Part shown: one piece after another, positions 38,932 through 57,166 of the stretch
Layout: every line of letters begins with the position of its first letter
Position numbering within the stretch: the stretch's first letter is position 1
From: Chitinophagaceae bacterium
Lineage (GTDB): Bacteria > Bacteroidota > Bacteroidia > Chitinophagales > Chitinophagaceae
Assembly: GCA_027489035.1 (NCBI GenBank)
Contig: JAIYAN010000013.1
Location: 4,141-68,140, forward strand
Reading direction: 5' to 3'
Length of the DNA: 64,000 nucleotides
The notes under the pieces: generated by a model
The model's input: the letters and a program-made list of their open reading frames with translations, nothing else
The model's database searches: none
What the model was told of the DNA's origin: nothing
Position numbers and translations under genes: made by a program

Positions 38932-39480
38932 ATGAAAACACATTTTGATATAGAAAAAATTGTAGAAATGGGCATAATCACCAGTGAATTGGATTATGAA
39001 AGGGCGTTAATTGCGGATAGAAAACTAAGGCTACTTGGGAAGGAAGATGTACATTTTAAACATCTAAGAAAAAAGTTGCGCAACATCATTGAAAAGTATG
39101 AAAATAAGGAATGGAGTGTAGTTGAAAGCATTGATGATAATAAACTTTTAGAAAGCGAGAAAGCGGAAAAGTTTGCAGAATTAGAAAGACAATTTTTAGA
39201 AACCAGAAAAATAGAAATCAGAAAAAAACTAAAAGTGCTTGAACTCACTCAAGAAAATCTGGCTTCAATATTAGGTCATAAAAGCAAGACGCACATGTCG
39301 GAATTGATGAATGGGATCAAGCCATTTACGCTAAGGGATATAATTATTATACATCAACTATTAAAAATAGAAATATCAACATTGATACCTGTGTTTCTTT
39401 CAAAAGAGGAACAAAACAAAATAAACAGAGCGGTTGAGAAATTAGATATATCGAAAGGTGTGAGGATTGGGTATTTGTGA
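38932..39480 (+). CDS. XRE-family HTH protein, HigA-like antitoxin
   Basis: SELDYERALIADRKLR; LTQENLASILGHKSKTHMSELMNG HTH. Confidence 0.75.
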   Translation: MKTHFDIEKIVEMGIITSELDYERALIADRKLRLLGKEDVHFKHLRKKLRNIIEKYENKEWSVVESIDDNKLLESEKAEKFAELERQFLETRKIEIRKKLKVLELTQENLASILGHKSKTHMSELMNGIKPFTLRDIIIIHQLLKIEISTLIPVFLSKEEQNKINRAVEKLDISKGVRIGYL

Positions 39481-39645
39481 TGGAATTGGAATGATTTTAA
39501 GTTAGTTGATTCGAACACAAATAGTAGTAAATAAAAAATACCATAATTTTTAAATATTACAGGAAAAGATATATTTTTGAAGAGGGTGTGTGAGATATAA
39601 ATCTGGCATAAGAGGATTATGGGCAAGTTTGATGACAGACAAAAT

Positions 39646-39707
39646 AGTTGAGACAAGAAAACAACTAAAAAAACAGGGAGCATTCAGAAAATCCAAAAGA
39701 GTAGGAA
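39646..39707 (+). ncRNA. Cassette-leader structured RNA, copy A
   Basis: AGUUG/CAACU hairpin; GGA..UUCA-GAAAA-UCC..G-AGUA-GGAA; 20 nt before ATG 39728. Confidence 0.7.
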
Positions 39708-39727
39708 CAAATTTTTAAAAAAACAAA

Positions 39728-40234
39728 ATGAAAAATTTATTGATTTTAGCAACAATGTTGCTTTCGTTTGGAGCCGTAAATGCTCAAAATCATATTATGA
39801 CATATGATGGTTCATCGTCAGGGGGGAGCGGTTTATTTACAATTGTTGGTAATAACATAATGAGTTATGATGGATCATCTTCAGGGGGTAAAGGTATTTA
39901 CACGATTGTCGGTAATAATATTATGACATATGATGGTTCATCTTCTGGAGGGAGAGGTGTTGCAACTATTAATGGAAATAATATAATGACATATGATGGA
40001 AGTTCTTCAGGTGGAAAGGGAATTGCAACATTTGTAAATAATAATATTATGACTTACGATGGAAGTTCTTCAGGTGGAAAAGGTATAGCCACAAAAGTAA
40101 ATAGCAATTTAATGACTTATGATGGTTCGTCATCTGGCGGAAGGAGAATTTTAACCTTTAAAGATCCATATATGTCCAAGCCAACTTTTGCAGCAATATT
40201 ATTGGCAAAAGGGATTATTTGGAGTGGAAATTAA
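39728..40234 (+). CDS. Secreted tandem-repeat protein (6 x 21-aa IMTYDGSSSGG repeats)
   Basis: Signal peptide ending VNA-Q; repeat period 63 nt with synonymous variation. Confidence 0.85.
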   Translation: MKNLLILATMLLSFGAVNAQNHIMTYDGSSSGGSGLFTIVGNNIMSYDGSSSGGKGIYTIVGNNIMTYDGSSSGGRGVATINGNNIMTYDGSSSGGKGIATFVNNNIMTYDGSSSGGKGIATKVNSNLMTYDGSSSGGRRILTFKDPYMSKPTFAAILLAKGIIWSGN

Positions 40235-40375
40235 ACCAGCCAATAAAACGGGTTTGGCAAAAGTTGCGGTTTATTGCTCCGCAGACACATTTGTGGTTAA
40301 TCAAAGTTTGGTTCTACGCATCAACGTATGTGGTGAAAACCGCCAACTTCTTTTAGCAGCAAACCGTTAACATTC
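40235..40375 (+). mobile_element. attC-like imperfect palindrome 1
   Basis: Starts right after the stop (CAGCCAATAAAA); arms AAGTTGCGGTTT / AAACCGCCAACTT; ends CCGTTAACA. Confidence 0.65.
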
Positions 40376-40388
40376 ATTCATAAAAAAA

Positions 40389-40423
40389 CAGGAGGAAGCC
40401 GAAAATCCTTAATAAGAGTAGGC
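40389..40423 (+). ncRNA. Cassette-leader structured RNA, copy B (pseudoknot domain only)
   Basis: AGGA..GCC-GAAAA-UCCU..G-AGUA-GGC; 26 nt before ATG 40450. Confidence 0.7.
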
Positions 40424-40449
40424 GAAAATTTTAAAAATAAAACAGTATT

Positions 40450-40881
40450 ATGAAAGAAAGTTTTGAAAAACTGGCAGCTGCTATCATCTATTCAGATGGC
40501 GAGGTGGCTCCAAGCGAGTTAAGCCAACTCGAAAAACTGGCTACTGACATAGGTACTGACAAAGCAGCTATGGTAGCTTCCATTGAGGCAGAAATTGAAA
40601 AGCTGAAGCCTATGGATGAAGAAGAATTTCAGCAGTACATGAAAGATGCAGCTTCAGGCATTACAGAGCCTGAGCATCGCTACAAAGCCTTTGATGCGAT
40701 GTTGGAACTTACCTTGGCCGACAATTCTTTGGATGATTTAGAAACCAATGTATTGGGCAATATGTCACAATACTTGGAAATTCCCATTCATTATTTTGCC
40801 AATAATTTGGCTTTTCAAGTCAAGGCAAAAAATGTAGAAATCTTTGCACAAAAAAGTTGGCAAAAACCTGTAGAAATTTAA
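40450..40881 (+). CDS. TerB-like helical protein
   Basis: Two TerB-type half motifs: AIIYSDGEVAPSE and LTLADNSLDDLE. Confidence 0.7.
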   Translation: MKESFEKLAAAIIYSDGEVAPSELSQLEKLATDIGTDKAAMVASIEAEIEKLKPMDEEEFQQYMKDAASGITEPEHRYKAFDAMLELTLADNSLDDLETNVLGNMSQYLEIPIHYFANNLAFQVKAKNVEIFAQKSWQKPVEI

Positions 40882-40893
40882 AAACAAATAAAA

Positions 40894-40924
40894 ACGCGGA
40901 TACCGAAAAGCGAATAGAGTAGGC
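40894..40924 (+). ncRNA. Cassette-leader structured RNA, copy C (pseudoknot domain only)
   Basis: CGC..ACC-GAAAA-GCG..G-AGUA-GGC; 22 nt before ATG 40947. Confidence 0.7.
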
Positions 40925-40946
40925 GTAAAAACTTAAAATCATTAAA

Positions 40947-41150
40947 ATGTCTTTTACAAATATAAAGCTAAAAGGGGGCAAAGTTGGACAAGTATACCAA
41001 ACAATAAATTACTTTTCCGAATCAAAAAACTGCAAATGGTGTGGTAAGGAGATTAAACAACATAAGGCAGTTTTTGAAGCAGATGGTGATGGTTCGAAAC
41101 CATGTTGTGGCATGGCGCATGCGAAGGCATATATGAATGCAAAAATATAA
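40947..41150 (+). CDS. Small putative zinc-binding protein
   Basis: 67 aa; CKWC...CCGMAH ligand set. Confidence 0.6.
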   Translation: MSFTNIKLKGGKVGQVYQTINYFSESKNCKWCGKEIKQHKAVFEADGDGSKPCCGMAHAKAYMNAKI

Positions 41151-41227
41151 TTACAGTCAATTAAGTGCAGGGCGTATATCATAAAATTTATGCCTTGCAT
41201 TTATGTTCAATTAAACAGAGTTTAATA

Positions 41228-41752
41228 ATGACTAAACCAAAAATTAAGAACACGATTGTCGCAATTAGCGAAGGCTTGTTGGGTAAAGCTGTTTTTAACT
41301 CAAAAATCAATATTTCTGAGGCTTATTCAGAGTATATGCTTTATGAGCCTATCGTACTAATAGCAAACAGAAACTGGAATGTTCAAAGTGAAGTCCAACT
41401 GACTTCATTAAAAAGCAAGGGACGGGGCGACAATAAAAAAATTGATTTTGTTTTAACTGATTTGGAGAACAATGACCGTTCTATTGCTTTGGAGGTCAAA
41501 TACATAAAAGGGGTCAAATCAAAAATCAAAATTGATGCAGACATTGAAAAACTATCAGCCTTTAAAACTGAAAAGTCTTCAAAAGATACAAAAGCTTTTT
41601 TGATGATTTTATGGAAAGAACATTCAAATCGCGACAAACATCGAACCCGAATATCACAAATTGGTATAAAGAAGTATTTTGAATGTTCTTTTGAAACAAA
41701 TTTAAAGCAGAAATATGTAGTCACTGTGTTTGAAATATACACGAAACGCTAA
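41228..41752 (+). CDS. PD-(D/E)XK nuclease-fold protein
   Basis: VQSEV..L...KKIDFVL...IALEVK catalytic-motif spacing; ATG 41228 preferred over the upstream alternative start at 41165. Confidence 0.6.
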   Translation: MTKPKIKNTIVAISEGLLGKAVFNSKINISEAYSEYMLYEPIVLIANRNWNVQSEVQLTSLKSKGRGDNKKIDFVLTDLENNDRSIALEVKYIKGVKSKIKIDADIEKLSAFKTEKSSKDTKAFLMILWKEHSNRDKHRTRISQIGIKKYFECSFETNLKQKYVVTVFEIYTKR

Positions 41753-41816
41753 AAGCGTGTAATCGATATTGCCCCTCCCTTTGCGCCATCGCCTACACGC
41801 TAACCGTCATAAGCAA
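41745..41816 (+). mobile_element. attC-like palindrome 2 (short)
   Basis: CGCTAAAA overlaps the stop; GCGTGTA / TACACGC arms; ends CCGTCATAAGCAAT. Confidence 0.5.
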
Positions 41817-41863
41817 TTTTAGAACACCAAAAAACATATAATTAACAAAAGAAAAAGAAAAAT

Positions 41864-42343
41864 ATGAAAAAACGTAAAATAATATTTATAACATTTTTAC
41901 TACTTGTTTTAGGGTTGGTTGTTTATTACTTTTATCCAGAGCAGCATATAAAAGACGGGCAAAAAGCGGATAAAATTGTTGTTAATAAAGCTGCTCACGA
42001 ACTTCTGCTTTATTACAAGGATGAACTTGTTGCTTCTTATTCGGTTTCGCTAAGTAAAAATGGGCTTGGTAAAAAAACAATGAAAGGCGATAACCTCACA
42101 CCTGAGGGTAGTTTTAAAGCAAAAAAAGGACTTAAAACTAAATTCCATAAAGCAATTGGCGTTGGAGAGTGGGAAGATTGTTGCGTCGTTAGAATACACG
42201 GACTCGGAGAACAATTTGGTTGGGTTGGAAAATTCCACCGTTGGGTAGATTTGTCGGAAGGATGTATTGTTCTTACCAATAATGAAATTGATGAAGTGTA
42301 TAAAGCAACAGTAGTAGGCACAAAGATTGAAATCAACCCTTAA
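41864..42343 (+). CDS. L,D-transpeptidase (YkuD) family protein
   Basis: KIVVNKAAHELLLY, GDNLTPEG, IHG...SEGCIVL (His/Cys). Confidence 0.85.
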   Translation: MKKRKIIFITFLLLVLGLVVYYFYPEQHIKDGQKADKIVVNKAAHELLLYYKDELVASYSVSLSKNGLGKKTMKGDNLTPEGSFKAKKGLKTKFHKAIGVGEWEDCCVVRIHGLGEQFGWVGKFHRWVDLSEGCIVLTNNEIDEVYKATVVGTKIEINP

Positions 42344-42362
42344 CAAAACTGATATAATAAAT

Positions 42363-42471
42363 GCTGCCTTTAACAACACAATTACAATAGGCGGCGGTTC
42401 AGTGCTCCGCATCAATATTTGTAGTGAAAATCACCACCTTCGCCTACGCGCTGAACGACGTTATGGGAAAG
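42363..42471 (+). mobile_element. attC-like palindrome 3
   Basis: GCCTTTAAC ... TAGGCGGCGG / CCACCTTCGCCTA ... CGTTATGGG; interior is a shortened version of palindromes 1 and 7. Confidence 0.6.
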
Positions 42472-42527
42472 TTTAAACGTCATAGTGGTTAAAAGCAGGC
42501 TGACCACCTAAAGTGACAAACAAAAAT

Positions 42528-42588
42528 ACTGGAGTCAAGAAAACCACTTTAAAACAGCGAGGATTCCGAAAATCGACAAGAGTAGGAA
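42528..42588 (+). ncRNA. Cassette-leader structured RNA, copy D
   Basis: UGG/CCA hairpin; CGA..UUCC-GAAAA-UCG..G-AGUA-GGAA; 22 nt before ATG 42611. Confidence 0.7.
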
Positions 42589-42610
42589 ACACTTTAAAAT
42601 AAAATAAAAA

Positions 42611-43063
42611 ATGGCACAGGAAATGTATAAACATGATGCATTGCTTCACTTATTGTGGGCAGTTGCAAATGCAGATACTACATCAGATGATCAAAAATAT
42701 GGTGATGCAGTATCCAGTTTAGAAGATGAGTATTATGAAAAGGTTAAAAAGGCAGAAGGAATTGATATTTCCTTTTCAGAAATTGCTGATAAGCGCAAAG
42801 CGTTAAGAAATAGCATTGGATCTGATGGAATCATTAACGAAGCACTGAAGGCTACAAATGGTTGTAGCAAAGAATGGAAAGCGAAAGTAATTGTTTATAT
42901 GATTAAGATGTCTAATAGATCATGGGGCGGTGATTATCTATCGAATGGCGAAAAAATTAATATCTCTGATAGTGAATTTGAAATTATCAAAAAGGCTAGA
43001 AAATACTTAGGTTTAACTGAAGAAGAAGAACAAAAAGGTTGGGACTTAATAAAAGGCTCATAA
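42611..43063 (+). CDS. TerB-like protein
   Basis: LLWAVANAD...LEDE and ISDSEFEIIKKARKYLGL. Confidence 0.6.
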   Translation: MAQEMYKHDALLHLLWAVANADTTSDDQKYGDAVSSLEDEYYEKVKKAEGIDISFSEIADKRKALRNSIGSDGIINEALKATNGCSKEWKAKVIVYMIKMSNRSWGGDYLSNGEKINISDSEFEIIKKARKYLGLTEEEEQKGWDLIKGS

Positions 43064-43193
43064 CAACGCATAAGCAATAGCAGGGCGGAAGTGCTTCATT
43101 GAACTTCTGCCCTTTTTTGTAATTTGTAACTTGTGTTAAGCTTTGGTGCTTTTAAGCCCGCCCATCACAAATCTGCAAACCTTTATGGGCAAG
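43055..43193 (+). mobile_element. attC-like palindrome 4
   Basis: GGCTCATAAC overlaps the stop codon; GGGCGG/GCCC arms; ends CTTTATGGGCAAG. Confidence 0.6.
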
Positions 43194-43257
43194 TTTAAAA
43201 AATAAAAAGGTCTGCGAAACCATAGGGCTGACCACCAAAAGCGACAGAACATAAAAA

Positions 43258-43318
43258 AGTGGAGACCAGAATCCACTCAAAAAAACGGGGCGAAATCCGA
43301 AAAGCTAAACGAGTAGGA
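43258..43318 (+). ncRNA. Cassette-leader structured RNA, copy E
   Basis: AGUGG/CCACU hairpin; GGC..UCC-GAAAA-GCU..G-AGUA-GGA; 18 nt before ATG 43337. Confidence 0.72.
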
Positions 43319-43336
43319 AATAAAAAAAGTAAAAAA

Positions 43337-43588
43337 ATGGCAAACTTCACTTACAAATGTGTTCCTGTTCCTGACGTAATTAATACAGGGAAAACAGGAA
43401 AAGACTTACACTCATACGCTGTAACTTCTTATGAAAAAATTATCAACGATGCTTCCTCGGGCGGTTGGGAACTTGTAAATATTGACACAGTAACTTCTGT
43501 TCAAAGACCAGGTTGTTTAGCAGGTCTATTTGGTGCAAAAGCTCAATCCGTAACGTTTAAACTGTTAGTGTTCAAGAAGACTGTGTAA
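43337..43588 (+). CDS. DUF4177-like small protein
   Basis: True start ATG 43337 (the ORF-track start 43259 reads through the RNA element); FTYKCV...IINDASSGGWELV...LLVFKK. Confidence 0.7.
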   Translation: MANFTYKCVPVPDVINTGKTGKDLHSYAVTSYEKIINDASSGGWELVNIDTVTSVQRPGCLAGLFGAKAQSVTFKLLVFKKTV

Positions 43589-43603
43589 CCAATAAAATTC
43601 TGT

Positions 43604-43629
43604 AAGAAGGAGGGTTCTCCCTCCTTCTT
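43604..43629. terminator. Strong GC-rich hairpin between the DUF4177-like and YidD-like genes
   Basis: AAGAAGGAGGG-TTCT-CCCTCCTTCTT, perfect 11-bp stem, no long U-tract. Confidence 0.55.
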
Positions 43630-43645
43630 ATTAAACAAATGAAGA

Positions 43646-43849
43646 ATGAAAAAAATCCTTATTCTGATTGCACACCTGTATCAAAAAACTGCACCTAAAA
43701 GAATTAGAAACTCTTGTAGATTTGAGCCATCATGTTCGGAGTATATGATTTTGTCATTAAACAAATATGGAGTATGGAAAGGTTTGTCAAAAGGGTTAGG
43801 AAGGTTAAAAAGGTGTAAAATTCCAAATGGAGGAATTGATTATCCTTAA
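43646..43849 (+). CDS. YidD-like (membrane protein insertion efficiency / haemolytic domain) paralogue
   Basis: LYQKTAP..SCRFEPSCSEYMILSLNKYG..GLGRLKRC....GGIDYP. Confidence 0.85.
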   Translation: MKKILILIAHLYQKTAPKRIRNSCRFEPSCSEYMILSLNKYGVWKGLSKGLGRLKRCKIPNGGIDYP

Positions 43850-43976
43850 ATTTTTTGAAATACTGCTACATGCAGTCAAAGTAAAACTTCTAAAGTAATA
43901 ATAAATAAACCGATATTAATAATGTGCAGGCTAAACGGTTCAAAGCATGCTTATCACCTAAAGTAACATACAAAAA

Positions 43977-44037
43977 AGTTGAGACAAGAAAACAACTCAA
44001 AAAACAAGGAGCAATCTGAAAATCCATAAGAGTAAGA
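43977..44037 (+). ncRNA. Cassette-leader structured RNA, copy F
   Basis: AGUUG/CAACU hairpin; GGA..UCU-GAAAA-UCC..G-AGUA-AGA (compensatory UCU/AGA); 20 nt before ATG 44058. Confidence 0.72.
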
Positions 44038-44057
44038 ATAAATTTAAAATCAAAGAA

Positions 44058-44540
44058 ATGAAAAATGTAAAAAGTACTTTGTTATTATCTTATTTATGCC
44101 TGATACTATTATCAAGTTGCAGTGAGAATTACTCAAATGGCGAAAGAATTGGAGTAATAACCCAATTTTCAGAAACAGGTTTAATTTGGAAAAGTTGGGA
44201 AGGTCATTTAAACGTAACTCAAACAGGCATGAATAGTAGTGTACCTTTCGATTTTTCAATTGACAATGATAATCCAGACGAAGAAATAATCAAAAGACTT
44301 GATTCAGCAACTCAATATGGTTGGAAAGTAAAATTAGTTTACCATGAAACTGCTGGTAAAAATTGGTTTAGTAACCGAGGCGAAACAAACCATTTTATTA
44401 CAAAAGTAGAAGTGCTTGAAAAGAATTTTGGAAATGCATTTAACGGAAATCAACAACAGAAAAATTCAGGGAAAGTTATTGATACAATTTATGTAGTTAT
44501 TACTCCCGACAATCCTGATTATAAAAAATTCTTTAAATAA
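44058..44540 (+). CDS. Hypothetical lipoprotein
   Basis: Lipobox LSSC; YSNGERIGVITQFSETGLIWKSWEGHL. Confidence 0.75.
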   Translation: MKNVKSTLLLSYLCLILLSSCSENYSNGERIGVITQFSETGLIWKSWEGHLNVTQTGMNSSVPFDFSIDNDNPDEEIIKRLDSATQYGWKVKLVYHETAGKNWFSNRGETNHFITKVEVLEKNFGNAFNGNQQQKNSGKVIDTIYVVITPDNPDYKKFFK

Positions 44541-44747
44541 AAAATGATAAAAAACGCTCAATAAAATTCGTTACAAGAAATTGGCTGTTCGGTACTTTTT
44601 ATGATCATTTTTTGTTTAACAAACATTCATTCTTCGTAAGAATATACAAGTGATGATGAATAAGTTTTAATTCAGATAAAAAAATAAACGAGTCACCAAG
44701 CGAAAAATTTTCCTACTTAAGTTTTTTTAATATATTTATAAAAAATA

Positions 44748-44806
44748 AGTGGAGTCCAGAAACCACTTTAAAAACGGGGCGAAACCGAAAAGCCTTAAGA
44801 GTAGGA
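44748..44806 (+). ncRNA. Cassette-leader structured RNA, copy G
   Basis: AGUGG/CCACU; GGC..ACC-GAAAA-GCC..G-AGUA-GGA; 18 nt before ATG 44825. Confidence 0.72.
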
Positions 44807-44824
44807 AAATAAAAAATTAATAAA

Positions 44825-44938
44825 ATGGCAAAATCACAAACAAAAAGCGTAACAGGTTCTAAAACCACTACAAAAACAGTTACAAAAGCAGGAAAGGCAG
44901 ATAAGCGCACTAAACTAGGTGGTGCAAAGAAGAAATAA
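44825..44938 (+). CDS. 37-aa Lys/Thr-rich basic peptide
   Basis: Manual translation MAKSQTKSVTGSKTTTKTVTKAGKADKRTKLGGAKKK; sits at the standard distance behind RNA copy G. Confidence 0.6.
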   Translation: MAKSQTKSVTGSKTTTKTVTKAGKADKRTKLGGAKKK

Positions 44939-44958
44939 ATGAAATCAGCAAATTTCAA

Positions 44959-45017
44959 AGTGGAGTCCAGAAACCACTCAAAAAACGGGGCGAAACCGAA
45001 AAGCCTTAAGAGTAGGA
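44959..45017 (+). ncRNA. Cassette-leader structured RNA, copy H
   Basis: Near-identical to copy G; 18 nt before ATG 45036. Confidence 0.72.
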
Positions 45018-45035
45018 AAACAAAATTTTTATAAA

Positions 45036-45668
45036 ATGAAAAAATCAAGAATTATTATCCTCGTTATCCTAATCATTATTGTTGCTATTGGTTATTGCTA
45101 TTTACTTTACAAAACATGGAATATTTTTGGCTTCTGGACATTGATGTGTACTGCTTTAATTTCAATTATTTCAACGTCCTTTCTTGGTAATTTAGTTGGT
45201 TCCAGGACTGAAAACAATGGAGTAATTATGTATAATCCAAAAGAATGGCCCAAATTTTTAAATATGTTGGTTTCACTTGCAATTGGCTATTATTTATTTA
45301 CAAAAATTGATAATCCAAGCATCTCAAGTTATGACTATATATTTGGATTAACATATCTTATACTGTTATCATTAATACCAATATTAATTTCCATTTTTAA
45401 ATTAATTAGAGACCGAAACGATTATATTTCAATAGATGGTGATAGTTTAAAGTACAAGGATAATGATGAAACAGGTGAATTTAAATTTGCAGATATCGCA
45501 ACTGCTGAAATATCTAATGGAATTAAACTAAACTTTAAAGATGATACAACATTGACGATAAAAACAGGCAACATGAATTTTAACGCAAAAGATTTATCAA
45601 ATGCATTTAGTGACATCGTAGCAAGACTACCGGAGGTTAAAATGGAAGATACATCAAATTCAAATTAA
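45036..45668 (+). CDS. Hypothetical membrane protein with a C-terminal PH-like beta domain
   Basis: Four hydrophobic segments followed by RNDYISIDGDSLKYKD. Confidence 0.7.
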   Translation: MKKSRIIILVILIIIVAIGYCYLLYKTWNIFGFWTLMCTALISIISTSFLGNLVGSRTENNGVIMYNPKEWPKFLNMLVSLAIGYYLFTKIDNPSISSYDYIFGLTYLILLSLIPILISIFKLIRDRNDYISIDGDSLKYKDNDETGEFKFADIATAEISNGIKLNFKDDTTLTIKTGNMNFNAKDLSNAFSDIVARLPEVKMEDTSNSN

Positions 45669-45806
45669 TAAATTCAAAAGGCGTTTGATAACTCAATATT
45701 TTTCCAAATATAGAATCAAGAAAAAAATTGTATAAAAATTATTTTTTAAAAAAGGAGTATTCTAAAATTACAAATAAATAAAAAACAGTAAATTAAAATT
45801 AATAAA

Positions 45807-46211
45807 ATGGCAAGAGAAATAACAACAACAGGATCTAAAAAAGTATCTACGTTAATGAAAGAGTTTAACGAACATTTTCCATATTTACGCTTGAGACTTT
45901 ATAATCCTGAGGTAAAAAAAGCGATTTCTGAAGGTGTTAAATCTCTCACGGAGTTTAGAGTTGATATTGAAAAAACGTTATCTGAGGTTCGTACAAAAAA
46001 AGGTGCTGGAACTGCTTCATTTACAGGAAGTAAAAACGTAGGAACAGTCGAAAAAGAGTTTGAAAATATTTTTGGGTTATTTGCTCAAATTTGTTTTACA
46101 AGTGCTGATGGTGGAATGTTTGCTTCTACGGGGGCGGATGACAAGAAATCATTAACTGAATTAAACAGAGAAAAAGCTGCGGCAGGTTGTTTGAAAGATC
46201 AATGGAAATAA
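45807..46211 (+). CDS. Hypothetical protein with two internally similar halves
   Basis: TGSKKVSTLMKEFNEHFPYL vs TGSKNVGTVEKEFENIFGL. Confidence 0.7.
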   Translation: MAREITTTGSKKVSTLMKEFNEHFPYLRLRLYNPEVKKAISEGVKSLTEFRVDIEKTLSEVRTKKGAGTASFTGSKNVGTVEKEFENIFGLFAQICFTSADGGMFASTGADDKKSLTELNREKAAAGCLKDQWK

Positions 46212-46215
46212 CAAT

Positions 46216-46320
46216 ATTGTAACATCGTATTAGCAATATTAGGGCAAAAGTACTTCATTGAACTTTTGCCCTTTTTTTATTTGTTCTAGTTAAAAACTTT
46301 GGTATTTTTAAAAAATGTAA
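46216..46320 (+). mobile_element. attC-like palindrome 5 (degenerate)
   Basis: Shares AGGGC..AAGT.CTTCATTGAACTT.TGCCCTTTTT with palindrome 4. Confidence 0.5.
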
Positions 46321-46406: not shown

Positions 46407-47159
46407 ATGAAAAAGAGTATAAAAAACAACACAAATGATAAGTATAAGTCACATTTAATCGACAAAAACATCTTTTGGGGTTTACCATTTACCTTTTTTG
46501 CTTTCTTTTTGATTGTAATTTTATCTATTAATCAATCTACTTCAATAGATTCATCTGGAGCAGAAGTTGTACAAAACACAGCTTTTTTTGCTTTGTATAA
46601 AGTTCTTTTATCTTCAGGCTTTTCGATGCTTCTCATTGGTTTTGTTTTAAATTCTACAAGTGTTTTACCCATAGATATTTATGAAAAAAACAATTCATCA
46701 TACCTTTTCACCAATCATACCTTTATTATAATTATTAAAATTATTATTATAATTATCGGTTTGATTTTATTTGTTTTATCATCCATGTTTGAACCTGGAA
46801 GTAAAACACCATTATCGTTCTGGGATTTTTTTTTCATTTCTATTTGTATTCTTTTTACTATGTATTTTATTAAGAAACTAATTCAAAATAGAGGCGATTA
46901 CGTATTAATTGAAAATGAGAAATTAGCATGGTTTGATGATAAAAATAATGCTGTTAATGAAATCAAATTTTCTGAAATCAAATCATACAAAAAAATTTTA
47001 GAAAATACATCTAGGTCTCCTCAAATTGTAGGTATTTTAATTGTTTCAACTTTTGAGAAAGAGTTAAAAATAGATTTTGGAAACATGAGTCTCATACCTC
47101 AAAGTGGGTTTATTTTTAATGTGATTTTAGAAAAAATTCCACAAGCATATATTGATTAA
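46407..47159 (+). CDS. Hypothetical membrane protein
   Basis: Four TM segments; C-terminal RGDYVLIENEKL domain resembles that of 45036..45668. Confidence 0.65.
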   Translation: MKKSIKNNTNDKYKSHLIDKNIFWGLPFTFFAFFLIVILSINQSTSIDSSGAEVVQNTAFFALYKVLLSSGFSMLLIGFVLNSTSVLPIDIYEKNNSSYLFTNHTFIIIIKIIIIIIGLILFVLSSMFEPGSKTPLSFWDFFFISICILFTMYFIKKLIQNRGDYVLIENEKLAWFDDKNNAVNEIKFSEIKSYKKILENTSRSPQIVGILIVSTFEKELKIDFGNMSLIPQSGFIFNVILEKIPQAYID

Positions 47160-47285
47160 AAGATAAAATTAAAAACAGATAGAAACACATAATTTGTAAG
47201 CTCAAATAATTACTCAAGTTTAAACCTTAATACACCTTAGAAAGCCGAAAATTCATTTTATAATAGTCACAAAAAAATATACAAT

Positions 47286-57027: not shown

Positions 57028-57166
57028 GGTAGCAGCCAACACATTTACAATTGGCGGGGTTTTATGCTCTGAAGACAATTTTGTGGTAGCCAAAAGTTTA
57101 GTTCTCAACATCAATATTTGTGCTAAAAAATCCGCCCATCGCAAATCTGAAAACCGTTAAAGCCAA
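57028..57166 (+). mobile_element. attC-like palindrome 7
   Basis: GGTAGCAGCCAAC ... TTGGCGGGGTTT / AATCCGCCCATCGCAA ... CCGTTAAAGCC; interior homologous to palindrome 1. Confidence 0.65.

Follow-up and report, generated by a model that had tools for sequence, protein, structure and literature searches.

Eight copies of the catalogued DUF805/DUF805b RNA motif, a covarying pseudoknot near the start codon, precede small genes in a Chitinophagaceae array

In a 64,000-nucleotide stretch of contig JAIYAN010000013.1 from a Chitinophagaceae bacterium (hereafter the window), 8 of the 11 plus-strand genes at 39.7–45.7 kb carry the same short repeat shortly before the start codon, and we asked what this repeat is and what it does there. 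A first-pass annotation of the window had taken it for an apparently undescribed pseudoknotted RNA leader. Scanning the window with Rfam 15 at the curated gathering scores (51.1 bits for RF03081 and 35.6 bits for RF02914) gave exactly eight matches, and these are the eight repeats (Table 1). Six of them (A, D, E, F, G and H) matched DUF805 RNA (RF03081) at 53–90 bits over model positions 1–68 of 68, and copies B and C matched DUF805b RNA (RF02914) over model positions 1–35 of 35. Both families are typed Cis-reg in Rfam and both belong to clan CL00115. Because an Rfam match, named beforehand as the finding that would remove novelty, was obtained for all eight copies, the motif is not undescribed: each repeat is almost certainly a copy of the DUF805/DUF805b RNA motif of Bacteroidota that Rfam already lists, and each stands in the 5′ untranslated region (UTR) of one of eight small accessory genes.

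The likeness to the Rfam families extends beyond the scores. The features of the Rfam consensus were present, namely a 5′ hairpin of 4–5 bp with the loop AGnCCAGAAA, followed by a 3-bp hairpin with a loop ending in CCGAAAA and by the 3′ string GAGUAGG; the sequence, both nested hairpins from end to end, the occurrence in Bacteroidota and the position upstream of genes all agree. By contrast, the structure line of the Rfam covariance models, which are what we compared rather than the curated seeds, has two hairpins only and no pseudoknot. The DUF805 domain is encoded by none of the eight window genes and by 5 of 135 downstream genes in a wider sample (Pfam), so the association with this domain is an enrichment and not a rule, and its absence does not exclude membership. 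A permissive Rfam scan of 39400–45900 (E ≤ 10) returned nothing else credible, including no ribozyme and no preQ1 family. The two motifs were reportedly first described by Weinberg et al. in Nucleic Acids Research in 2017 (45:10811). No work on what either motif does turned up in the literature searched, and DUF805 is not mentioned in the main text of Weinberg et al. 2017 (PMC5737381).

Reading 39.4–45.9 kb directly, we found the eight copies, all on the plus strand, where the first-pass annotation had placed them, and the covariance-model matches agreed. The pattern GAAAA-N7-GAGTARG had seven exact matches in the window, all within 39.6–45.1 kb; the chance expectation is about 0.9 at no more than one mismatch, and the observed count was reached in 0 of 100 shuffles. 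Copy B, whose spacer is 10 nt, was recovered by the covariance models and not by this pattern. The open reading frame (ORF) list and the Rfam scan together confirmed the proportion of 8 in 11, the motif being absent before the genes that start at 41228, 41864 and 43646. Neither the Rfam scan nor the core covariance model found a ninth copy elsewhere in the window; a candidate at 47238 was rejected as a look-alike fragment. Between the last G of GAGUA-GG and the ATG of the co-oriented ORF lie 19–27 nt, which equals the 18–26 nt first proposed once the count starts from the base after GG.

A core covariance model built from the eight window copies gave 326 matches in the window and 288 further loci (cited here by L number), the roughly 320 copies analysed coming from Bacteroidota, Ignavibacteria relatives and phage contigs. 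The motif consists of an optional 5′ hairpin (hairpin 1) with the loop AGnCCAGAAA, an A-rich linker and then the core, in which a 3-bp helix (helix 2) closes an 11–12-nt loop ending in CC-GAAAA. The loop CC, together with the preceding U, G or C when present, pairs with the GG(N) right after GAGUA, giving a small H-type pseudoknot; in the consensus pattern GAGUA begins 7 nt after GAAAA. In the window, the 3-bp helix is complementary in every copy and the crossing pairs are UCC/GGA in D and E, GCC/GGC in B, UCU/AGA in F and CC/GG in C, G and H, with one mismatch in copy A (UCA/GGA). Hairpin 1 is present in six copies (A and D–H) as AGUGG/CCACU or AGUUG/CAACU, with one mismatch in D. All of these pairings agreed base by base with the earlier description.

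Compensatory changes were found in all three helices. In a MAFFT alignment of 131 distinct full-length copies, with pairs counted without correction for phylogeny, hairpin 1 had compensated changes at all five pairs (the second, for example, is GC in 81 copies and AU in 30), and 98% of cells in the 3-bp helix were paired, the closing pair occurring as CG, GC, AU and UA in wider alignments. The crossing pair that adjoins GAAAA was CG in 59 copies, UA in 55, UG in 4 and other in 13, and the second crossing pair was CG in 127, UG in 3 and UA in 1. For the third, we counted UA in 52, UG in 12, AU in 3, CG in 2 and other in 62, these last cells being the A of 11-nt loops, where the third pair does not form. 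The observed covariation values were reached in 0 of 500 shuffles, sliding the 3′ partner by 1–3 columns lowered pairing from 88% to 19–49%, and alignments fitted to the model gave the same result.

The pseudoknot was also put to a one-sided test. The first scan had fixed both CC and GG; in a metagenome scan we then selected only the 3′ string GAGUA-AG and left the loop free. The base before GAAAA was then U in 92, C in 22 and A in 2 of 116 unique copies, compared with U in 10, C in 35 and A in 1 of 46 copies with a 3′ G, for which neither side had been selected (Fisher p ~1e-11 for the enrichment of U, uncorrected for phylogeny). At the third pair, counted over all unique copies, G faced C in 37 of 41, C faced G in 14 of 18 and U faced A or G in 128 of 132. 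Window copy F (UCU/AGA) is one of these natural compensated variants. The viral contigs (27 and 21 loci) held too few copies for a 2 × 2 covariation table of their own. Because the crossing pairs covary and the one-sided test agrees, the pseudoknot is well supported, and the proposal of three covarying helices, two of which cross, was borne out. An alternative hairpin in which a conserved CGG pairs with the loop CCG, taken from the fold of copy G, was rejected, as copies A, D and F lack the GG. At one locus (L026:1891-1942, minus strand) two DUF805 cores stand in tandem, GAAAAUCCUAAAAAGAGUAGG being followed directly by GAGCGGAAGCCGAAAAGCUUGAGAGUAGGC.

GAAAA, the A, U and A of GAGUA and the A two bases upstream of GAGUA were invariant in the 131 copies, and both G of GAGUA were nearly so. 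Read antiparallel, CC-GAA faces AGUA-GG, with Watson–Crick pairs directly 5′ of GAA and 3′ of AGUA. In bulged-G (sarcin–ricin or loop E) modules the flanking Watson–Crick pair likewise lies 3′ of AGUA and 5′ of GAA. Consistent with the first-pass suggestion of a loop E motif, the signature and the polarity of the module are thus both present at the level of sequence, and GAA opposite AGUA could extend the crossing helix as a bulged-G-like stack. If these non-canonical pairs form, the crossing helix would become a stack of 5–6 tiers with loops of 4–5, 1–2 and 4 nt, a sensible geometry for an H-type pseudoknot. The leaders are A-rich, with nearest-neighbour energies of −4 to −15 kcal/mol and z-scores near 0; as nearest-neighbour folding is this weak, the fold must depend on non-canonical pairs, tertiary contacts or a partner.

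The arrangement seen in the window holds across the phylum. An exact-pattern scan with one genome per species gave at least 120 loci. Among the matches listed, nearly all were from Bacteroidota or from Ignavibacteria/Kapaibacteria relatives, with the orders Bacteroidales, Flavobacteriales, Chitinophagales, Cytophagales and Sphingobacteriales represented; viral contigs (IMG/VR) contributed a few dozen copies, mostly of the DUF805b type. A same-strand ORF with an ATG start lay just downstream of 146 of 152 core-model matches. The gap from GG to ATG had its mode at 20 nt and fell within 16–28 nt in 127 of the 146, across orders and in the Ignavibacteria relatives, and the spacer is A/U-rich, variable and unstructured. 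The fixed distance and orientation claimed for the window therefore hold across Bacteroidota, and the reading as a strand-specific, cis-located structured RNA is supported. The further suggestion that the element travels with mobile genes stood in part: copies on phage contigs and the cassette-like array of the window favour it, whereas most other loci have one copy per 8 kb and the copies mostly stand singly before ordinary chromosomal genes.

RNA data place the motif in the transcript. The window organism itself occurs only in freshwater metagenome DNA runs and in no RNA run. Assembled RNA contigs of Chryseobacterium indologenes cover the start of the gene together with the core and hairpin 1 and stop 20–45 nt further upstream; 20 nt before hairpin 1 stands a perfect −7 box of the Bacteroidota type (TATCTTTG). 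For Flavobacterium johnsoniae CI04, the contig with the RNA of the downstream gene has its end at G3457, within the 5′ stem of hairpin 1, and the region upstream of the motif is covered by another contig; a second F. johnsoniae copy had no RNA coverage. The motif is thus transcribed as part of the 5′ UTR, near the 5′ end of the mRNA, and this is all that the contigs show, as they are low-depth assemblies. Across 151 loci, conservation starts about 4 nt before hairpin 1, and we found no promoter box at a fixed position upstream of it. Only 8 of the 151 had a canonical −7 box (TAnnTTTG) within 80 nt upstream, which means that many copies must be served by a promoter of another kind.

The genes that carry the leader have little in common. 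In the window they encode a beta-flower-like repeat protein, a TerB protein, a DUF4177 protein, a 37-aa Lys-rich peptide, a membrane protein and three products without a Pfam match. In the wider sample, 135 downstream proteins fell into 57 Pfam families, including AHSA1/SRPBCC (12), bacteriorhodopsin-like (7), DUF805 (5), SCO4226-like (5) and TM2 (4), and further downstream products were outer-membrane beta-barrels, porins, lipoproteins, SnoaL, GYD and a cold-shock protein. Rhodopsins, outer-membrane beta-barrels, cold-shock protein and lipoproteins are expected to be abundant. Phage and prophage contigs (L121-L147 and L268-L288) have mostly DUF805b cores before small genes, among them phrog_24909, a ParB-like gene, a lipoprotein/protease-like gene and a cystatin-like 89-aa protein; the PHROG annotation of the phage genes downstream of DUF805b is mostly 'unknown function'. 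Because the downstream genes are so diverse, a metabolite-specific regulon is unlikely.

What, then, does the motif do? Bacteroidota do not rely on Shine–Dalgarno pairing for initiation. As the edge of the fold sits at the border of the initiating 30S subunit in a phylum that makes no use of Shine–Dalgarno pairing, we infer as its likeliest role, with a probability of roughly 40%, that of a cis-acting element at Shine–Dalgarno-independent translation initiation. The 3′ edge of the fold would lie about 20 nt upstream of the AUG, before the unstructured A/U-rich spacer, and position −20 would be the upstream border of the mRNA stretch covered by the initiating subunit. The fold may then offer the ribosome, or a factor associated with it, a compact platform that serves for docking or insulation, and transferable genes might thereby gain a portable initiation signal. 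That the distance to the AUG stays near 20 nt throughout the phylum speaks for the involvement of the initiating ribosome, and the diversity of the genes, which include likely abundant proteins, the use by phages and the weak stand-alone fold are in favour as well.

Several points weigh against translation initiation as the function. Fixed spacing would equally suit a switch that masks the ribosome landing site. To our knowledge, the motif has no convincing complementarity to the 3′ end of 16S rRNA beyond AGGA, which is too far from the AUG for Shine–Dalgarno pairing. Initiation cannot generally require the motif, since most Bacteroidota genes lack it. The covariation counts are uncorrected for phylogeny, and the RNA evidence consists of low-depth assembled contigs rather than mapped 5′ ends.

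The main rival is a ligand- or protein-responsive switch, in which the core would be an aptamer for a ligand, an ion or an RNA-binding protein and the CC/GG pairing beside the A-rich landing site would turn translation of a stress regulon on or off, much as small pseudoknot riboswitches like preQ1-I do. We regard this as possible, on balance doubtful. About 20 invariant or nearly invariant nucleotides stand in formally unpaired positions (GAAAA, A-N-GAGUA and ACGG), as in ligand pockets; the fold is only marginally stable alone; its size and topology are those of known H-type pseudoknot aptamers; Rfam types it as cis-regulatory; and many products are small stress-type or membrane proteins, such as AHSA1/SRPBCC, DUF805, SCO4226-like, TM2, TerB and DUF4177. 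However, the 57 families, with rhodopsins, porins and phage genes among them, make up no coherent pathway, and a single array has the common motif before eight differently functioning genes; a leader shared by so varied a set, some of it from phages, speaks against a riboswitch dedicated to one pathway. Nor did we see a conserved terminator or anti-sequestor platform, the spacer being A/U-rich and variable, and neither of these hallmarks of a metabolite riboswitch, an expression platform and a coherent gene set, was seen here.

A role at the 5′ end of the mRNA is a weaker alternative. As a stabiliser or processing element, the motif would protect the downstream mRNA from 5′-dependent decay, either at the 5′ end of a transcript or where an array transcript is cut. 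The end of the F. johnsoniae contig within hairpin 1, with its separate upstream contig, the −7 box of C. indologenes and the recurrence of the motif before gene after gene of the co-oriented window array would all fit. Such a role is nevertheless improbable, as hairpin 1 is missing from DUF805b copies, helices so short and weak could not stop nucleases by stability alone, and a fixed distance to the AUG is not needed for protection; moreover, the contig ends are ends of low-depth assemblies, and those of C. indologenes reach 20–45 nt further upstream. We consider it very improbable that the conserved element acts as DNA, with the RNA helices incidental, whether it belonged to a recombination site or gave an alternative sigma factor or a regulator its promoter or operator. 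The rarity of the −7 box (8 of the 151 copies) and the conserved DNA modules adjoining some copies (described below) speak for it, whereas three helices show compensatory changes and tolerate G-U pairs (UG in 4 and 3 copies at the pseudoknot, and GU in helices 1 and 2), the orientation to the ORF is strict, the distance is fixed to the ATG rather than to a promoter box, no box stands at a fixed position upstream and the region is found in RNA contigs. Finally, a small self-cleaving ribozyme that processes array transcripts, suggested by a compact, pseudoknotted element with invariant unpaired purines standing in tandem before successive genes, is hardly credible: no Rfam ribozyme family (hammerhead, twister, pistol, hatchet and others) was matched at E ≤ 10 in 39400–45900, RNA contigs pass through the core uninterrupted and the main text of the 2017 paper is silent on DUF805, leaving self-cleavage with no support.

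The surroundings of the motif in the window are unusual in their own right. Downstream of core genes (S2, EF-Ts, UMP kinase, Rho and catalase-peroxidase), the motif genes form part of a run of small co-oriented ORFs punctuated by palindromes of about 132 nt (X elements) and by a second conserved module (Y). The Y module, which lies between palindrome and hairpin 1, 90–175 nt upstream of GG, consists of TTATGGGCAAGTTTAAA, then GGTCTGCGAAAGCCAAMGGGCTGACCACC, then GTGACA. It recurs at about 25 other loci (L226:3436-3520, L253, L267 and L217, for example), where the organisms differ and the genes that follow are unrelated. With only 4 bp and almost no covariation, Y was rejected as a structured RNA; it may supply a promoter or operator that travels with the leader, and it need not be part of the DUF805 RNA.

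The X elements are imperfect palindromes of 129–134 nt that start just past the preceding stop codon and lie immediately upstream of Y; they are associated context and not part of the DUF805 RNA. Their ends are ..YATAAC (5′) and ..CAAAMC-GT/TA (3′), and conservation stops at GTTA, past which 11 of 31 elements have the Y module and the rest unrelated sequence. The arms differ between copies yet stay complementary: RNAalifold on 22 copies gave a long-range stem of 15 bp with 13 pairs compensated. In L061, L226, L187 and L253, X elements follow successive small co-oriented ORFs at a spacing of about 1 kb. Over part of one window palindrome (40248–40333), depth rose 10–100-fold in three unrelated metagenome runs, so the repeat family is present in many copies and is widespread, both in freshwater and in other communities. 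The 30 ORFs scanned at 25.9–54.4 kb of the window included no recombinase, and 25 related loci yielded a single Xer-like recombinase, 7.5 kb away and below the TIGR02249 integron-integrase cut-off. When related metagenome contigs were compared for joints marking the presence or absence of a cassette, no sharp borders showed at the palindromes, and most joints were repeat or low-complexity artefacts. A stretch of ATT-rich, low-complexity sequence (46722–46757, inside ORF 46407–47159) had very high depth and many false joints with metagenome contigs.

It is possible, although unlikely, that these parts belong together, DUF805/DUF805b being a portable, Shine–Dalgarno-independent initiation module (a loop-E pseudoknot docking 30S or a partner about 20 nt before the AUG) that with the Y module (TTATGGGCAAGTTTAAA...) would form the 5′ end of mobile cassettes bounded by attC-like palindromes of about 132 nt.

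Other features of the array were noted in passing. Gene A contains five to six tandem 63-nt (21-aa) repeats (39788–40165; consensus like NNIMTYDGSSSGGKGIxT) with a weak Pfam match, below cut-off, to a 6-fold beta-flower family, and a similar repeat protein follows a DUF805 copy in L253. The 37-codon Lys/Thr-rich ORF at 44825–44938 (MAKSQTKSVTGSKTTTKTVTKAGKADKRTKLGGAKKK) has a near-consensus leader of its own, copy G; the Rfam match of copy H begins 18 nt past its stop codon, and the two copies are 91% identical. The leaderless gene at 43646–43849 encodes 67 aa and by eye resembles a YidD-type membrane protein insertion efficiency factor (CxxxPSCSxY). Two stretches, 43048–43118 and 46207–46277, are 79% identical and each end in a strong terminator-like hairpin and T run (AGGGC..AAGTGCTTCATTGAACTT..GCCCTTTTTT); they directly follow the stop codons of two unrelated genes, and the first lies within an X-type element.

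Table 1 DUF805/DUF805b copies, Y modules and X palindromes. Window coordinates unless an L number is given.
Feature	Position	Strand	Score; downstream start and product	Anatomy or notes
Copy A, DUF805 RNA RF03081	39642..39711	+	59.6 bits; ATG 39728, beta-flower-like repeat protein	hairpin 1 39646-39650/39662-39666 AGUUG/CAACU; helix 2 39677-39679/39692-39694 GGA/UCC; UCA-GAAAA 39684-39691; GAGUA-GGA 39699-39706
Copy B, DUF805b RNA RF02914, core without hairpin 1	40383..40432	+	45.7 bits; ATG 40450, TerB-domain protein	helix 2 40391-40393/40406-40408 GGA/UCC; GCC-GAAAA 40398-40405; GAGUA-GGC 40416-40423
Copy C, DUF805b RNA RF02914	40886..40933	+	42.5 bits; ATG 40947, 67-aa Cys-rich protein	helix 2 40895-40897/40910-40912 CGC/GCG; ACC-GAAAA 40902-40909; GAGUA-GGC 40917-40924
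Copy D, DUF805 RNA RF03081	42524..42592	+	53.3 bits; ATG 42611	hairpin 1 42528-42532/42544-42548 ACUGG/CCACU, one mismatch; helix 2 42558-42560/42573-42575 CGA/UCG; UCC-GAAAA 42565-42572; GAGUA-GGA 42580-42587
Copy E, DUF805 RNA RF03081	43254..43323	+	77.3 bits; ATG 43337, DUF4177 protein	hairpin 1 43258-43262/43273-43277; helix 2 43289-43291/43304-43306 GGC/GCU; UCC-GAAAA 43296-43303; GAGUA-GGA 43311-43318
Copy F, DUF805 RNA RF03081, compensated pseudoknot variant CU/AG	43973..44043	+	56.6 bits; ATG 44058, lipoprotein-like	hairpin 1 43977-43981/43993-43997; helix 2 44008-44010/44023-44025 GGA/UCC; UCU-GAAAA 44015-44022; GAGUA-AGA 44030-44037
Copy G, DUF805 RNA RF03081, near-consensus	44744..44811	+	90 bits; ATG 44825, 37-aa Lys-rich ORF	hairpin 1 44748-44752/44763-44767; helix 2 44778-44780/44792-44794 GGC/GCC; ACC-GAAAA 44784-44791; GAGUA-GGA 44799-44806
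Copy H, DUF805 RNA RF03081	44955..45022	+	87 bits; ATG 45036, 210-aa membrane protein	hairpin 1 44959-44963/44974-44978; helix 2 44989-44991/45003-45005 GGC/GCC; ACC-GAAAA 44995-45002; GAGUA-GGA 45010-45017
Y module before copy D	42462..42527	+		TATGGGAAAGTTTAAA ... GGCTGACCACC ... GTGACA
Y module before copy E	43184-43257			
Y module before copy A	39618-39645			short form
Y module before copy F	43937-43976			partial
X palindrome between gene A and copy B	40243..40372	+		~130 nt; 5′ ..ATAAAAC, 3′ ..CAAACC-GT/TAACA; nhmmer
Related X element	~42366-42466			nhmmer
Related X element	43064-43186			nhmmer
Related X element	57034-57162			nhmmer
Related X element, degenerate	41753-41812			nhmmer
X elements elsewhere	L061:71-202/1042-1173/2066-2198			
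X elements elsewhere	L226:58-189/3309-3440/6019-6150			
X elements elsewhere	L187			three copies

The motif was already known as an orphan RNA family in Rfam; the test of its pseudoknot, the phylum-wide spacing, the statistics of gene content and the cassette-like context are added here. The natural compensated variant, in which CC/GG has become CU/AG, shows that the pseudoknot is real and supplies ready-made mutants. If the motif is an initiation module, it bears on translation initiation in Bacteroidota and could be put to use as a part for expression in Flavobacterium and Bacteroides. The palindromes beside the genes and the cassette-like array merit study of their own, neither X nor Y having a family in Rfam, and if the array does consist of cassettes with attC-like palindromes, an integron-like system in Bacteroidota would have been largely missed by current attC models.

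How these elements relate to known systems can be set out for each in turn. The X palindromes may be either attC-like or ERIC/Correia-like. With integron attC sites they share TAAC/GTTA ends (compare R'' RYYYAAC and R' GTTRRRY), covarying arms and a place after each small ORF, but only 5 of 7 positions in their R boxes agree with the consensus and no integron integrase lies nearby. The G-U pairs in X favour folding of the gene-sense strand (26 versus 4), which suggests that a transcribed, RNA-level palindromic repeat of the ERIC/Correia type fits better than a bottom-strand attC site. Compared with other DUF805 loci, the window is exceptional in its density, with eight copies in 5.4 kb and a maximum of four among the 288 others.

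Among RNA elements, the preQ1-I riboswitch is alike in its size of about 35 nt, in a short hairpin loop that pairs with a purine-rich 3′ tail past an A-rich stretch and in its position upstream of a start codon. DUF805 differs in having no Rfam preQ1 match, no queuosine-related downstream genes and other conserved nucleotides, and its paired GG lies about 20 nt from the AUG rather than in a Shine–Dalgarno sequence. The bulged-G module has the same AGUA and GAA strands, G-C flank and polarity, a likeness at the level of sequence; in DUF805 the two strands would be joined by a pseudoknot and not by an internal loop. The phage T4 gene 32 translational operator is not related in sequence, and with so many unrelated genes behind DUF805 leaders, it is unlikely that one protein regulates its own synthesis through them. 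Some phage DUF805b copies do precede small genes, and in both systems a pseudoknot stands at the upstream edge of an unstructured, A/U-rich initiation leader.

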